From Chloroflexota bacterium (lineage in GTDB: Bacteria > Chloroflexota > UBA11872 > VXOZ01), in assembly GCA_963662335.2 (NCBI GenBank), contig CAXXVD010000004.1, forward strand, positions 96,001 through 160,000: 64,000 bases of DNA, read 5' to 3'. Below, piece by piece: positions 57,114-63,240 of this stretch. Made by a program: the position numbers and the translations under genes. Position 1 is the first letter of the stretch. The number at the start of each line of letters is the position of its first letter. The notes beneath the pieces are model-generated. The model was given only the letters and a program-made list of their open reading frames with translations, did not search any database and was not told the DNA's origin.

Positions 57114-57451
57114 CCTCCGCCTCCCGGGTCGTTATCCCATCACAAAATGAGGTGGGCGCCAGCGATTGCCGGCCGTTCTCCGCGGTGGACTTGCGTTCTC
57201 CGCATCCCGCTCTATCCTGAGGTAAGAACTGAAGAGTCCCACTCGGGCATGTGTGGAATATTCCCCATATGCCCGACCTTGGGCCTCAGCGGTTATGCGC
57301 CAGGCCCATCGCATTGGCCTCCTTACCGTTGGGCTTGCCACCGAAGAGTTGGCAATCGAGTCGCCGCCGTCCAGGTCTTCTTGAGAATCCACCGGCCCGA
57401 TGGGCCTGGCTGGCCTGTCTATGGCCACCAAGATGCGCGGGTCTATACGCC

Positions 57452-58564
57452 ATGCTGAATCTGCCTCATGCCGATGTCGTTGGGAGCCTCATTAGACCAC
57501 CGGAACTCCTCGCCGCGCGCGCGGAATTCGCGGGCGGGCGCATCTCGCCCGCGGCATTCAAGCGCGCCGAGGATGCCGCCGTCGATGGCGCCATTGCCGC
57601 CCAGGAGGAGGCCGGCCTTGAGATCCTCACCGACGGCGAAATACGCCGGCTCTCATTTCAGAGCCAGCTGCCCGAGGCTGTCGCGGGCTTTGGCGAGTTC
57701 GATCTCGACGCGTTTCTCTGGGGCGATTGGCGGGGGGACGAGCGGGTAGGCGACTCGCGCACGGATCGTCCCGCGACCCTAGGTGTCGTCGGTCGCCTCC
57801 AGCGGAAGCGCCACCTGTCGGCGGAGGAGTTCACCTACCTGCGCGGCCGCACCACGCGCCTAGCAAAGGTGACGTTGCCGAGCCCCAGCTTGTTCGCCAA
57901 CTTCTGGTCGCCGGTGAAGTCCGCCGCGGCCTACCCCACACTGGATGCGTTCCTGGCCGACGTCGCGCGGATACTCCGCGAGGAGATCGAAGAGCTGATC
58001 AGGCTGGGGGCGACCTACATCCAACTCGACGCGCCGCACTACCCGCTCGTGCTGGATCCGCAGTGGGCGGCGTTCTACGAGGCGCAGGGGTGGTCCGCGG
58101 CGGACTGGATCGCCCAGGGCGTCGAACTGGACAACGCCGTGATGGACGGTTTCTCGGATGTGGTGTTCGCGTTCCACCTCTGACGCGGCAACCAGGGCGG
58201 CCGGTGGCTGGTCGAAGGCGGTTACGACCGGCTTGTTGAGCCGGTGCTCCGGCGCATACACGCGCAGCGGCTGATGCTGGAATACGACGACCCGCGCTCA
58301 GGCTCGTTCGCGCCGCTGCGCGGCGTGCCCGACGACAAGCTCGTGGCGCTGGGACTGGTCACGACCAAGTCGCCGCGCGCGGAGACCCCAGCCGAACTTG
58401 CGTCTCGCATCGCCGAGGCCGCCCGCCACTTCCCGCTCGAGCAACTCGCCATCAGTCCGCAGTGCGGGTTCGGCTCATCCATCGTCGGCAATCCTCTCTC
58501 GATCGAGCAGCAGAACGCAAAACTGCGCCTCGTCGCCGAGACCGCCCGCAACGTTTGGGGGTAA
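57452..58564 (+). CDS. Short cobalamin-independent methionine synthase II (MetE C-terminal-like) protein, probable selenoprotein (TGA at 58181-58183, codon 244)
   Basis: ADVVGSLIRP, QEEAGL, TDGEIRR, YIQLDAP, then H-L-TGA-R-G-N and in-frame LEYD, LGLVTTK, ISPQCGF. ORFs 57251..58183 and 58244..58564 share one frame. Confidence 0.85.
58198..58210 (+). promoter_or_regulatory. Candidate bacterial SECIS apical hairpin
   Basis: CGGCC-GGT-GGCTG. The GGU loop starts 20 nt after the UGA. Confidence 0.5.
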
Positions 58565-59069: not shown

Positions 59070-60035
59070 TCAATCTACCACCTGGTACTTGGCAGGCAAG
59101 TTACTGGGACTGTAGGGGTTGCCGGAATTCTCCATGCGTCTGGGCACGCTCGAATGAATCTTCGCCGATTCGGGAATGCGCCGCTGTACCGGACGCCAGA
59201 CGCGCCACATGCCTCGTCGGGACTCCTGGATTGCGCCTAGTGGATCCGGATTAAGGCTGTCCTCCCAACCATTTCTCAAGCGCAGCCCTTTGTCCCGCGC
59301 GTTCTCCAACATCCACTTTAGTGAAATGTCCGATATTCTAGGATCAGGATGCGACCCGCCCACGTCGGAATGGAAGCCCGGGAACCAGACTTGCTCTATG
59401 ATCTGGCGCTCACTCCTGCGACTCTCGTTCCAAAGGCTCACAGGGAAGTGTCTGCGTCGTTCGTCGATTGAGACCGCTTGGTAGCCATAGGTCACGTCCT
59501 CGTTCAGGACGGTATCGAAGAACTTCCTCCCCCAAAACCAGCCCATAGAACCGACGGTGTCCCATACACCAATGAAGTAAGGCTTGCATTCGTGGCAGTA
59601 CGTTTCCTTGAACCCGGCGGCAATATCGTGATTGTCACGTCTGTTGTAAATCTTCGTAGCGTATGGAATGAGATTGTTGCTGCCCTTTTGCAGCAGGCCG
59701 CACTTGTGCAACATGCCCGCGAGCGCGCGAACCGTAAAGGCTCCTCTACTGAATCCGAAGAGGAACACCCTATCCCCCGCTTCATACCGGTCCATTAGGT
59801 ATCTGTAGGCATCCTCCACGTTCTGCTGCAGACCCGCGCCAAAGGCTTTGCCCAACAGGATACCCACTCGGCGGCCGGCTTCCCGCCCCAAGAAACTGAA
59901 GGTTCCGACACCAGGGTCGTAGAAGGCGATCTGATCCGAATCGCGTACGACGCGCTGGTACAGCTTGACCACGTTGGTACTGTTGCGACTATGTTCAGCC
60001 CCGGTCCCGTCACAGCAGATGACGATGTTCTTCAT
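59070..60035 (-). CDS. DUF2235 (Tle1-like) alpha/beta hydrolase
   Basis: KNIVICCDGTG, TNVVKL, YDPGVGT, FGFSRGA, GVWDTV, WFPGFHSDVGG. Confidence 0.92.
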   Translation of the reverse strand: MKNIVICCDGTGAEHSRNSTNVVKLYQRVVRDSDQIAFYDPGVGTFSFLGREAGRRVGILLGKAFGAGLQQNVEDAYRYLMDRYEAGDRVFLFGFSRGAFTVRALAGMLHKCGLLQKGSNNLIPYATKIYNRRDNHDIAAGFKETYCHECKPYFIGVWDTVGSMGWFWGRKFFDTVLNEDVTYGYQAVSIDERRRHFPVSLWNESRRSERQIIEQVWFPGFHSDVGGSHPDPRISDISLKWMLENARDKGLRLRNGWEDSLNPDPLGAIQESRRGMWRVWRPVQRRIPESAKIHSSVPRRMENSGNPYSPSNLPAKYQVVD

Positions 60036-60110: not shown

Positions 60111-62459
60111 CTACCTGTAGGCATCGCCCAGCCACGGATCCGACCTGAGGTCCCTGTCGAACTCGCGAAGTGGGTGGCGGTCGGGGTCGAGTTTCTCTCC
60201 GGTATCCCATGGCTCGAAGGCGTTCTTGATGTTCCCCAGTCCCGTTCGGCCAAGCTCCGGGAAGTGACGGAGTATAACGGTCTTCAGGTCGGCGGCATCG
60301 ATCCAGGCAAGCCCCTCCTTCGTGTAGGTCTGTTCATTGTAGTCGTCGGTGTAGAAACGGTCCGCCTGGAGTCTGCGAGTCGCGTTCAGGATGAATATCT
60401 GGAACAGCGTTTCGCCGAACCCGAATCCGGTGGGGCGATGCCCCTCAGCGAGTGTACCAATCAGCAAGTCCAGCTTCTCCACGTCACTCGGCTGGTCCCC
60501 ATACACGTCCTTGAGCTTCCGTACCTGTTCGACGTCGTCGGTAAGGTCGTCGAACGTGCGAATTGGGTTGAGGCCCAATTGACGCCTGAACTCGTTGTAC
60601 CGTGGCACGCCCCTTTCGCGCGCCCTGAGGATGTCTACCGCACCCATATCGAAGAGCGGGTTGCCCGGTACACTAAGTTCTCGCATGAAGCTGGGGTAGT
60701 TGTTCAACACCAGTTGGCCCGGGTGCTGGACGCCAAATGAGAAGAACAGATCGGCCATTGACGTTCTGGCGGTCAGCCTGCCGGATCCCGCCTGGCGAGT
60801 CTGACCGAACGGCACGTCCTCGACCGCATTGTCGTTGCCGAGGCTTCTGATTCGGATTGCCTCGGGCAGAAGCGAGTGCAGGCGATAGACTTCGGCAAAC
60901 TCCTCGGTGAGGCCGTAGGGCTGCCCGTGCTTGTTGATCGGATTGCCTACAACACCGCCCATCTCCGGGTTCCGCACGTTGATGTCCGCAACCGTCTTCC
61001 TGTTCTCAGCGGCCCTGTAGGTGGTGAACAACCCATACCAGTTGGCATTCAGTCCTGAGTCGAGTCCGCGATTCGGGAGAATTGCCGGCGTCCATTCCAC
61101 GGTGTGTATCTTCGCCATCACGGCCGCGTTTATAAGGCGCGCCACGCTGAACAGGCGTGCGTCATCCCAATCATGATGGGCGCTCTTCAATCTGTCGCAG
61201 ATGGCATTATGCTCTCGCGTGAAGAGGGTGTGCAGCATGGTCAGGCCTATCCACCAGTTCCGGGTGAAGCCAGTCTGCTCGATACCCTTATCGTCGAGAG
61301 GTAGATTGCCCGCATCGTTGAGCCGAAGCTTGCCGTCGACCTTGGTACGGAGCTTTTCCAGAGTCTCCTGATTGCTGCCGTATATCTGAGAACCGTCCCA
61401 CCAGTGGGTGACTTCGTTGATGAACGTTATCGGGGTCCGTTCTCCATCGGGCATTCGGGTGGGATCGGATTGTGTCTTACCGATGAACATACTGGTCTGC
61501 CAGTGCTTCTTCCGAGCCGGGTCGTCTTCGGCCAGCGGAATCTCGTGCACCTCGTTGATGAGAGGCTCCCCATGGTGAACCCAATCATGGTTTTGGAAGT
61601 TGATCCATGACGCAGCCAGCAGATTGAGGAAAGGCACCTCCTTCATTTGCTCGCCCCTGGCCAGGAAGATGCGGCTTAACTCTCTCGGGTTCGGCGTCAT
61701 CAGGCTTTCACCCGTCTCTGGATGAATTACGTCGTTGTTCACATTGCGGGGGAAGCGAGTGCCTGCGGCGCCTTCTTTGGGATCGGCCAGGTTGTTCCAA
61801 CTTCCATCGGCCGTGCGAAAGTGTCTGACGCCCGGAGGTGGAGACTGTCCCTCCGGCTGAAAGCCTATCAAGGCTCCGGGTGGATAGGTGCTCTTGAGGT
61901 TGTTCTTGTTGAGTTGGTCGCGCATGTAGGCCAGGGTGAGAATCCCGATGAAGTACGGCCGGCGGTACCAGTTTGTCCACACCTCGTCGCGGTAGCCGGT
62001 CAGACCTCCTAGAACACTGGTCAATACGCTCATGACCAGCGACACAAACGCCCCTCCCGCGTTCCCCACCGCTAGCAGAACCCACTGGAAGAAGTTCCGC
62101 CTCGGCGCCGCCATCGGAGTAGAGGGTATAGAGCCATCCTCTACGACCGGCCTGGCGAGCAACGCGTCGCGGTCGAAGTAGGATATGTCCGGTACGTGCA
62201 CGTTCACTTCAGCCGCCGCATTCACGCGGGCCTGCGTCAACATGTCCTGCCACGTGCGCCTGTTGGGATCGAGCTTCAACGCTTGCCGGTAACTGTCGGC
62301 AGCCTCGTCATACTGCTGCAGACCGTAGTGCGCGGCCCCGGCGAGGGCGTGAGTTTCACCATCGGCGTCCGCGTCAATCTGCGCGCTCAGCAGTTCGAGA
62401 GCGTCCCGGAACCTGCGTTTCTCGATCAGCCGCGCCGCATCTTCGTTCGAGTTGCTCAT
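60111..62459 (-). CDS. Heme peroxidase of the peroxidase-cyclooxygenase superfamily (alpha-dioxygenase-like) with N-terminal TPR
   Basis: NLLAASWINFQNHDW, THWWDGSQIYG, AKIHTVEWTPA, YGLTEEFAEVYRLHSLLP, RERGVPRYNEFRR, RRLQADRF. N-terminal AADSYRQALKLDP. GGGAG RBS. Confidence 0.9.
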   Translation of the reverse strand: MSNSNEDAARLIEKRRFRDALELLSAQIDADADGETHALAGAAHYGLQQYDEAADSYRQALKLDPNRRTWQDMLTQARVNAAAEVNVHVPDISYFDRDALLARPVVEDGSIPSTPMAAPRRNFFQWVLLAVGNAGGAFVSLVMSVLTSVLGGLTGYRDEVWTNWYRRPYFIGILTLAYMRDQLNKNNLKSTYPPGALIGFQPEGQSPPPGVRHFRTADGSWNNLADPKEGAAGTRFPRNVNNDVIHPETGESLMTPNPRELSRIFLARGEQMKEVPFLNLLAASWINFQNHDWVHHGEPLINEVHEIPLAEDDPARKKHWQTSMFIGKTQSDPTRMPDGERTPITFINEVTHWWDGSQIYGSNQETLEKLRTKVDGKLRLNDAGNLPLDDKGIEQTGFTRNWWIGLTMLHTLFTREHNAICDRLKSAHHDWDDARLFSVARLINAAVMAKIHTVEWTPAILPNRGLDSGLNANWYGLFTTYRAAENRKTVADINVRNPEMGGVVGNPINKHGQPYGLTEEFAEVYRLHSLLPEAIRIRSLGNDNAVEDVPFGQTRQAGSGRLTARTSMADLFFSFGVQHPGQLVLNNYPSFMRELSVPGNPLFDMGAVDILRARERGVPRYNEFRRQLGLNPIRTFDDLTDDVEQVRKLKDVYGDQPSDVEKLDLLIGTLAEGHRPTGFGFGETLFQIFILNATRRLQADRFYTDDYNEQTYTKEGLAWIDAADLKTVILRHFPELGRTGLGNIKNAFEPWDTGEKLDPDRHPLREFDRDLRSDPWLGDAYR

Positions 62460-63240
62460 TTTCTCCCTCCAATGCGGTGAACGTTTGCGCACATGCATAC
62501 AGATTCAGCTGCTCAGTCGGGTCTTACGTGATACCTGAGGCCACCCTCTGGATACGAGTGTGGCAGCGGGTCTTGCGATAAGACTGGACTTTGCGGGCGT
62601 ATTCGACCGTACTGAATCAGCTTTAGGATAGCCACCTTGCAGACGAGGAGAATGAGTCCCTTGCCGAGGCAGTCCTCGCGCCGCCGAGAAAGAGGCTGGG
62701 ATACATGGCCTCTGCATCGCTTCCAGGTTCCACAGAAGGCCCACCGCTACGGCGATACGGAACCCATTGAGCGAAACGTTCATAAAGCCAGACCTTCGTA
62801 CTTTCTTTACCGTTGTACCATACTGTAATTCGTGTGAGGCTGCAAGTAGCCGATGCAGCGCCATCAGCCCGACGGGTCCGCTAACGTGCGCTCACTTGAT
62901 GTCCACCGCCGGGGCGCTGGGACCGGCCTCCACGGAGAGCCGAGTGATAGAGGGTGCTATGAACGCCGCCCATGAGCGGTGGTAACCCTTGCCGTACAAA
63001 GTCCATCGGGACAGATAAGTGTATCGCGGCCGTGGTAGACACTGGCTTCACCGGGTCCCCGACCGTGACTCCGGCGCTGGTCATAGAGTTGGAATAGCCC
63101 CTCGCTGGCAATAGCCGTGTGACGTCGAATCTCCCACCGAAGAGTTCGCAATTCGGTACGCCTTGGCCCGCCAATTCAACCGCTCTCAGCTACAATACTA
63201 TCTGGGCCAGCCGCGCAGACGCGCATTTGGAGTGCACACT

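Follow-up and report, generated by a model that had tools for sequence, protein, structure and literature searches.

Canonical MetE methionine synthases, such as those of E. coli, T. maritima, and C. albicans, have ~750 residues arranged in two barrels and activate homocysteine as a zinc thiolate. In the portion of PMC7857596 available to us, the zinc ligands of the E. coli enzyme are given as His641, Cys643, Glu665, and Cys726, with homocysteine held by Ser433, Glu484, and Asp599. The same portion describes the core methionine synthases MesA–MesD, which are short, have no folate domain, retain conserved zinc and homocysteine residues, and use methyl donors other than folates; it reports none of them with selenocysteine (Sec). 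The Cys-type short methionine synthases, represented by the Listeria structure 1YPX, the NCBIfam models PRK06520 and PRK06233, and B. subtilis YxjG/YxjH, consist of a single PF01717 barrel of ~370 residues and share the motifs H-x-C-R-G-N, LEYD, and SPQCGF. Here we describe a gene in a 64,000-nucleotide stretch of DNA from a Chloroflexota bacterium (GenBank assembly GCA_963662335.2, contig CAXXVD010000004.1, positions 96,001 to 160,000; hereafter the window) whose product matches these short forms in size, barrel, and motifs and has an in-frame TGA, very probably encoding Sec, in place of the Cys of H-x-C. It resembles canonical MetE in the positions of its zinc and homocysteine residues and, by analogy, probably in zinc-thiolate activation, but has a single barrel of 370 residues, and Sec would replace the equivalent of Cys643. 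With MesA–MesD it shares the short form, the missing folate domain, and the zinc and homocysteine residues, but it scores far below the cut-offs of the models presumed to stand for those families.

Almost all known selenoproteins employ Sec in redox chemistry, and in the few cases where Sec is a metal ligand the metal is Mo, W, or Ni, as in formate dehydrogenase H (Mo) and [NiFeSe] hydrogenase (Ni). The window protein is like these two enzymes in having a putative metal-contacting Sec outside a thiol-disulfide motif and in belonging to a pair of Sec and Cys homologs. It differs from them in that the predicted metal is redox-inert zinc and the enzyme a group-transfer enzyme. We know of no natural catalytic site that combines Sec and zinc, and our literature searches found none.

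An earlier note on the window, made from the sequence alone, had proposed that the TGA is read as Sec at a zinc site. The Sec machinery of the genome, the conservation of the TGA column, and the fit of a downstream hairpin to the consensus of bacterial selenocysteine insertion sequence (SECIS) elements all agree with that proposal, and comparative sequence data strongly support the reading of this TGA as Sec. We consider it highly probable that the gene is intact and that its UGA is decoded as Sec244 at the predicted zinc site of a MetE-like enzyme, which likely performs zinc-activated methylation of a thiol or selenol.

Gene and Product

The 370-residue frame has the TGA at 58181–58183 as its sole internal stop, in the context TTC CAC CTC TGA CGC GGC AAC (F-H-L-*-R-G-N), and the sequence 3' of the TGA is intact, with LEYD at residues 276–279 and SPQCGF at residues 335–340. 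Re-reading and translating the frame confirmed what the earlier note had described on these points. The start is conserved, since 12 of the 14 genus orthologs begin with MLNLPHAD and one with MLDLPHAD, and the sequence upstream of it diverges. Translation table 11 splits the frame into two open reading frames (ORFs; 57251–58183 and 58244–58564), as the note had expected gene callers to do. The coordinates of the gene and its features are collected in Table 1.

Table 1. Features of the Sec-containing MetE-like gene, with coordinates in the window. Residue functions are predicted by homology; residues of E. coli MetE are as given in the available portion of PMC7857596.
Feature	Position	Strand	Basis or detail
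Complete selenoprotein gene, 370-residue short MetE-like (PF01717) enzyme	57452..58564	+	ATG 57452, TAA 58562-58564
UGA read as Sec (residue 244), Cys position of the His-x-Cys zinc-ligand motif	58181..58183	+	Column conservation
SECIS hairpin	58195..58213	+	12-30 nt after the UGA codon; apical loop GGU 58203-58205
Pairs of the hairpin	58195-58213, 58196-58212, 58198-58210, 58199-58209, 58200-58208, 58201-58207, 58202-58206		58197/58211 mismatched in the window
His242 codon, predicted zinc ligand	58175..58177	+	In alignments, opposite the H of H-x-C of Candida MetE and of 1YPX
Glu277 codon (LEYD), predicted zinc ligand	58280..58282	+	Invariant; LEYD also in 1YPX; motif likeness
Cys338 codon (SPQCGF), predicted zinc ligand	58463..58465	+	In alignments, opposite the Cys of CG(L/F) in Candida MetE and in 1YPX
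Ser12 codon (VGS), putative equivalent of E. coli MetE Ser433 (homocysteine carboxylate)	57485..57487	+	Alignment, invariance
Glu63 codon (DGE), putative equivalent of MetE Glu484 (homocysteine amino group)	57638..57640	+	Alignment, invariance
Asp193 codon (QLD), putative equivalent of MetE Asp599 (homocysteine amino group)	58028..58030	+	Alignment, invariance

Pfam PF01717 (Meth_synt_2, the MetE catalytic domain) matched residues 9–340 of the product with 62 bits, against a gathering score of 21. The closest curated models were NCBIfam PRK06520 (217.5 bits; cut-off 313) and PRK06233 (198.4 bits; cut-off 576), and the canonical MetE model TIGR01371 gave 48.7 bits against a cut-off of 929.95. 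PRK04326, PRK09121, and PRK00957, which we take to be the models standing for the MesA–MesD families, gave 90.7, 53.8, and 36.7 bits against cut-offs of 406, 392, and 258, respectively. Every curated methionine-synthase model scored below its cut-off, and NCBIfam release 20 contains no model that claims the window protein. The nearest solved structure is 1YPX, a Listeria protein described as a 'putative vitamin-B12 independent methionine synthase family protein', which is collinear with the window protein over residues 6–370 (E 3.5e-47; 7.6e-64 with the family profile). The product is a single domain of 370 residues, and the folate-binding N-terminal barrel of MetE is absent. Judged by these comparisons, the window protein is a single-barrel MetE-like enzyme with the motif HL[U/C][R/K]GNQ, and it represents a sister subfamily to the YxjG/YxjH type rather than a member of it because its scores lie below the NCBIfam cut-offs. 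The earlier note had described a short, YxjG/H-like MetE relative; its placement among PF01717 MetE-like enzymes stood, and the YxjG/H-like part gave way to the sister subfamily.

Conservation of the TGA

Orthologs with 88–90% identity were present in 13 of the 16 other species of the window's genus, and 3 species gave no match. Column 244 was TGA in 10 of these orthologs and TGT or TGC in 3, so that, with the window included, TGA is found in 11 of the 14 gene-bearing species. The 11 TGA forms have a mean synonymous divergence (dS) of ~0.3, and their ratio of nonsynonymous to synonymous divergence (dN/dS; 55 pairs) was 0.125 for codons 1–243 and 0.154 for codons 245–370. As these values are alike on both sides of the TGA, purifying selection acts equally on the parts of the gene before and after the 'stop'.

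To follow the TGA beyond the genus, one genome from each of 185,579 species was scanned with the degenerate pattern H-x-TGA-[R/K]-G-N-x4-W-x3-G-x-Y. The scan yielded at least 110 stretches, and the DNA of 80 was examined; counts and taxa for these loci, here and below, are those among the matches listed. Homologs of the window protein (54–90% identity) with TGA in column 244 accounted for 77 of the 80, and the other 3 were chance matches. Sixty-eight of the 77 were intact and full-length with the TGA as their only stop, 6 were merely cut by the end of the locus, and 3 had further stops. According to their record titles the loci come from Chloroflexota (Dehalococcoidia, Anaerolineales), Binatia, Poribacteria, Methylomirabilota, Acidobacteriota, deltaproteobacteria/Thermodesulfobacteriota, Latescibacterota, Gemmatimonadales, Tectomicrobia, Planctomycetota, and others, and those closest to the window protein (88–90%) are titled Chloroflexota. 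Homologs with TGA in the same column of independent genomes, which the earlier note had named as a check, were thus found both within the genus and across phyla. Because the same column recurs as TGA in 10 other species of the genus and in 77 of the 80 loci examined from other genomes, it is neither a chance event nor an assembly error. Contigs from three public runs of one study also span 58181–58183 with no difference listed; this outcome of the read check suggested in the note is weak support for the TGA, because the runs may include the source sample.

Cys forms of the family are common in protein records. All 120 of the best full-length homologs in a large protein collection (65–86% identity) have Cys at column 244, and no full-length Sec-form record was among these best 120 matches, which fits gene callers ending the Sec forms at the TGA. 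In 401 genomes drawn evenly from the phylum, 41 had an ortholog (E <= 1e-100), of which 8, all from the window's genus, had TGA and 33 had Cys. A tree of 79 Sec and 121 Cys forms contained large all-Sec clades and indicated at least 13 switches between Sec and Cys. It excluded 9 Sec loci whose frames were cut or broken, as well as 2 of the 120 database proteins, which did not pass the length filter. Several homologs of the window protein end in TGA as an ordinary stop.

Selenocysteine Machinery

The genome of the window has selA (562 bits; cut-off 268), selB (381 bits; cut-off 242), and a Sec-type selD that itself contains an in-frame TGA (380 bits; cut-off 125), and Aragorn detected a tRNA-Sec with the anticodon tca. 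The four components whose presence the earlier note had made a test of its proposal are therefore all there, the protein genes above curated cut-offs. Among the Sec-form genomes tested, selA was above its cut-off in 31 of 32. The three grounds set beforehand on which the proposal might have fallen, namely the Sec machinery, the codons of homologs, and the reads, all came out in favor of Sec.

The selD gene lies outside the window (G000:C1:382996-383925), and its one in-frame TGA has the context ...AACAG*AGKLG; selD likewise carries an in-frame TGA in four further genomes (G434, G435, G441, and G436). Separately, we considered whether the family as a whole, Cys forms included, tracks organisms that use selenium. 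This idea was rejected, as selA was found in 20 of 21 Cys-form genomes against a phylum baseline of 308 of 401.

The Hairpin Downstream of the UGA

The earlier note had pointed out a hairpin, CGGCC-GGU-GGCUG, at +15 to +27. We located it at 58198–58210, where it forms the upper stem of a larger conserved hairpin (58195–58213). For the study of covariation, 74 distinct Sec-form segments were aligned. The stem was paired in 88.3% of cells, compared with 21–72% when the 3' partners were slid by 1–3 columns. Compensatory changes were present in 4 of the 8 stem pairs, and the observed covariation score was reached by none of 500 shuffles, so that the covariation the note had suggested looking for is indeed seen. 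At least 67 of the 74 sequences kept the upper five stem pairs, and the one-sided changes in three of these five were wobble-compatible in 25 of 25 instances. Pair 24-36 was C-G in 61 sequences, G-C in 3, A-U in 2, G-U in 1, and mismatched in 7.

In the available portion of PMC13188914, the consensus of a bacterial SECIS (bSECIS) is given as a loop of 3–9 nt starting with G followed by G or U, an upper stem of 4–16 bp, and a spacing of 16–37 nt. The hairpin lies within all of these limits: its loop, G-[G/U]-U, occupies positions 23–25 from the U of the UGA, 19 nt separate the UGA from the loop, and the stem has 5+3 bp. Like the elements modeled by bSECISearch, of which that of E. coli fdhF is the prototype, it is a hairpin in the coding region just after the UGA. 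Unlike a typical bSECIS, it has a very short triloop, and its stem is largely dictated by the peptide and persists in Cys forms.

As the stem alone is no proof of a SECIS, the argument depends on the base in the loop and on the pair with compensatory changes. At the second loop position, which is the third base of the Arg251 codon, all 75 distinct Sec forms had G or U (CGG in 58, CGU in 17). Of the 12 Cys forms that lie outside the genus and encode Q-x-[S/G]-R-W-L, 10 had CGC as this codon, 1 had CGA, and 1 had CGG, a contrast that is not a formal probability because the sequences are mutually related. The three Cys forms of the window's genus retain CGU at Arg251, as would be expected of recent Sec/Cys switches. 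A metagenome scan for further Cys controls gave mostly other subfamilies, with the QxSRWL peptide in 3 of the 80 loci examined. The SECIS of the genome's own selD was also compared; it offered two candidate hairpins, and no clear pattern in common was seen.

In the contigs of one of the three public runs we noted a G>T difference at 58204, the second base of the loop. It changes CGG to CGU, is synonymous, and mirrors the alternation of G and U across the family.

The Predicted Zinc Site and Substrate

In a pairwise alignment, H242, U244, and C338 of the window protein stand opposite residues H679, C681, and C761 of the Candida MetE construct. These presumably correspond to native His657, Cys659, and Cys739, the numbering being offset by a 22-residue tag. 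H242, C/U244, E277, C338, S12, E63, and D193 were invariant in 21 of 21 family members. The assignment of zinc ligands relied on 1YPX, on Candida MetE, and on this invariance, and it upholds the His/Sec/Glu/Cys set put forward in the earlier note. By homology, Sec244 would replace the first Cys ligand of the catalytic zinc, metal binding itself being a prediction. Homocysteine, or a close analogue, would most likely be activated on the zinc for methylation, as the conserved residues suggest.

On the preferred reading, SelB and Sec-tRNA(Sec) would decode the UGA, with the hairpin at 58195–58213 as the guiding element. The product would be a 370-residue single-barrel MetE-like enzyme with a zinc site formed by His242, Sec244, Glu277, and Cys338. 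Its chemistry would most likely be a methylation activated by zinc, with homocysteine or a closely related amino acid bearing a thiol or selenol as the acceptor. Sec may be of benefit by adjusting the Lewis acidity of the zinc and its exchange of ligands, or else by making the site resistant to the oxidative thiolation that inactivates MetE. The accessible part of PMC4360819 describes the zinc-ligand cysteines of MetE as targets of oxidative S-thiolation that causes methionine starvation; that resistance to this damage was the selective reason for Sec is speculation.

The genome contains other PF01717-like genes, including a short form of ~335 codons (G000:C1:669051-669998) and two adjacent matches (G000:C5:293706-295516) that may represent a MetE, either full-length or split. 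The organism may thus have a methionine synthase besides the Sec enzyme.

Gene Neighborhoods

The neighbors of the gene in the window encode a histidyl-tRNA synthetase, a Cache-domain protein, a Tle1-like domain protein, a heme peroxidase, and a DUF1801 protein, with no functional link to it; neither MesX nor a corrinoid protein is present as a neighbor in the window. The Tle1-like gene (59070–60035, minus strand) is convergent with the selenoprotein gene and encodes 321 residues with a Tle1-like phospholipase domain of type VI secretion systems (PF09994, E 2.9e-75). Beyond it, 60111–62498 on the minus strand encodes 795 residues with tetratricopeptide repeats and an animal-type heme peroxidase domain (PF03098, E 5.6e-109), a domain that is uncommon in bacteria.

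A survey of the 77 Sec-form loci with 1.5 kb flanks revealed other neighbors. A SenA-type selenoneine synthase adjoins 8 of them, with 373–403 bits for SenA, from ORFs cut by the end of the locus, versus 237–258 for EgtB. EgtD stands on the opposite side in 6 of these 8. The loci (L062, L063, L070, L073, L113, and L132, and also L115 and L125) belong to Methylomirabilota-like metagenome-assembled genomes. In three genomes a full-length SenA (502–528 bits; cut-off 420) is encoded on the strand of the Sec gene at a distance of ~70 bp, and the succession egtD, Sec-MetE-like gene, senA on one strand with gaps of ~70 bp (G434:C173:12944-15396) looks like an operon.

A different arrangement was found in Poribacteria, where SelD is encoded downstream of the Sec gene in 7 loci. 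In a complete Poribacteria chromosome the Sec-MetE-like gene, a Sec-type selD, and SenB (402 bits; cut-off 300) lie within less than 5 kb on one strand (G436:C1:1668054-1672950, locus L064). Eight Poribacteria loci (L064, L085, L099, L105, L108, L109, L110, and L116) were also observed to have an Amidohydro_2 gene on the other side.

A divergently oriented TauE/SafE permease gene adjoins 12 Sec-form loci of Binatia and deltaproteobacteria (L065, L066, L069, L082, L086, L087, L093, L098, L122, L123, L129, and L130), a SulP-family transporter adjoins 2 Dehalococcoidia loci (L074 and L131), and an MttB-family methyltransferase adjoins 1 locus. In the genome of the window, whose completeness is 96%, the searches detected neither SenA nor SenB. 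Nine Cys-form orthologs from the phylum, a small sample of one phylum, had no sen, selD, or egtD neighbors.

Alternative Explanations

Several points weigh against the reading of the gene as a Sec-dependent methyltransferase of homocysteine. The hairpin lies within the conserved peptide NQG[S/G]RWL, and most of the same stem is also encoded by Cys forms. A scan of 58100–58350 with Rfam (E <=10) returned no SECIS model and only two small RNA matches at chance level. Three of the 77 related loci have stops besides the TGA (12 in L080, one TAG in L101, and one TGA in L108), and these copies may be decaying or may contain assembly errors. Remote alignments to MetE and to MesD (3RPD) lose their register near H-x-C and near the Glu ligand, and for this reason Glu277 was assigned by its motif. 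Homocysteine methylation is deduced from conserved residues and is not established, because the protein falls below the cut-off of every curated methionine-synthase model. In other lineages the neighbors are of the selenoneine type, so that a different substrate is possible. More generally, we infer, rather than observe, the actual insertion of selenium, the binding of zinc by it, the substrate, and the benefit of Sec.

Two explanations dispense with Sec altogether. If the TGA were a nonsense mutation or an assembly error, the locus would be a young pseudogene or would be expressed as two fragments. The earlier note had allowed for a single TGC-to-TGA change, which would suffice, and both the two ORFs obtained with table 11 and the 3 of 77 related loci with further stops would fit. 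This caveat is countered by the conservation of the TGA, which 11 of 14 species of the genus retain at a dS of ~0.3 and with a dN/dS of 0.15 downstream, as do 74 further loci from many phyla that have no other stop. The downstream part moreover holds two of the four zinc ligands, no conserved start codon was seen directly after the TGA, and the contigs of the three runs retain it. We regard this explanation as extremely improbable, and for practical purposes it is refuted by the conservation data. Hardly more probable is that the UGA is read without selenium, as Cys or Trp by a near-cognate tRNA or through reassignment of the code. The frame would be open if the TGA stood for any residue, and the homologs do have Cys there. 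Yet TGA serves as an ordinary stop in the window's genome, in which many ORFs end at stops, the Sec machinery of the genome is complete, and a loop base that discriminates Sec from Cys forms would have no purpose if decoding were independent of a SECIS. The TGA forms are also nearly confined to selA-positive genomes, though the baseline for selA in the phylum is high as well.

The remaining alternative accepts Sec as real and questions the substrate: the enzyme might act in organoselenium small-molecule metabolism rather than in methionine synthesis, methylating or demethylating a selenol such as selenoneine, an intermediate derived from a selenosugar, or selenohomocysteine, with a Sec/zinc site specialized for selenolates. 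What speaks for it is that two differing arrangements, one with SenA-type and EgtD neighbors and one with SelD and SenB neighbors, occur in two phyla. On the other side, SenA and SenB were not found in the window's genome and the neighbors in the window are unrelated, and ~55 of the 77 Sec-form loci have no sen, selD, or egtD neighbor within 1.5 kb. The invariant residues predicted to bind a free alpha-amino acid suit homocysteine better than trimethylated selenoneine, and a methionine synthase beside EgtD could simply recycle the homocysteine released from the three S-adenosylmethionine molecules used per hercynine. The sen-cluster preprint (10.1101/2022.04.13.486033) mentions no MetE-like gene in its available portion. 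On balance we consider an organoselenium role possible but rather unlikely, and methylation of homocysteine or a close analogue by a Sec-zinc enzyme remains the preferred reading.

Novelty and Implications

The gene described here is a real selenoprotein gene. It represents a new Sec form within an enzyme superfamily that is already known, has Sec at the position of a zinc ligand, and is widespread and systematically mis-annotated. The Sec MetE-like family is not in the table of the 2026 review of the prokaryotic selenoproteome, which lists >110 families with Pfam/NCBIfam accessions and was searched by terms. Nor was it found in the BSepDB paper and its supplement, the text of which was possibly incomplete, in the deep-Sep paper and its four supplements, or in a 2022 review. 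Full-text searches, which covered part of the literature and had annotations of NCBI records outside their scope, returned no Sec-containing MetE-like protein, and no biochemical characterization of the HL[U/C][R/K]GNQ subfamily was found.

Were Sec to bind the catalytic, redox-inert zinc of an enzyme that transfers methyl groups, a new use would be added to those of the 21st amino acid. The natural pair of Sec and Cys forms would allow the tuning of zinc-thiolate alkylation by its ligands to be studied. Since gene callers split or drop the Sec forms, many uncultured lineages have a faulty annotation of their methionine and one-carbon metabolism. The neighborhood of selenoneine genes in some phyla is a testable lead to the substrate. 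One tentative idea, to which we give little weight at present, is that the Sec-zinc family itself handles selenium small molecules, making or unmaking Se-methyl compounds such as Se-methylselenoneine or selenomethionine. If this is true, the selenoprotein and selenometabolite branches of selenium biology would be linked.

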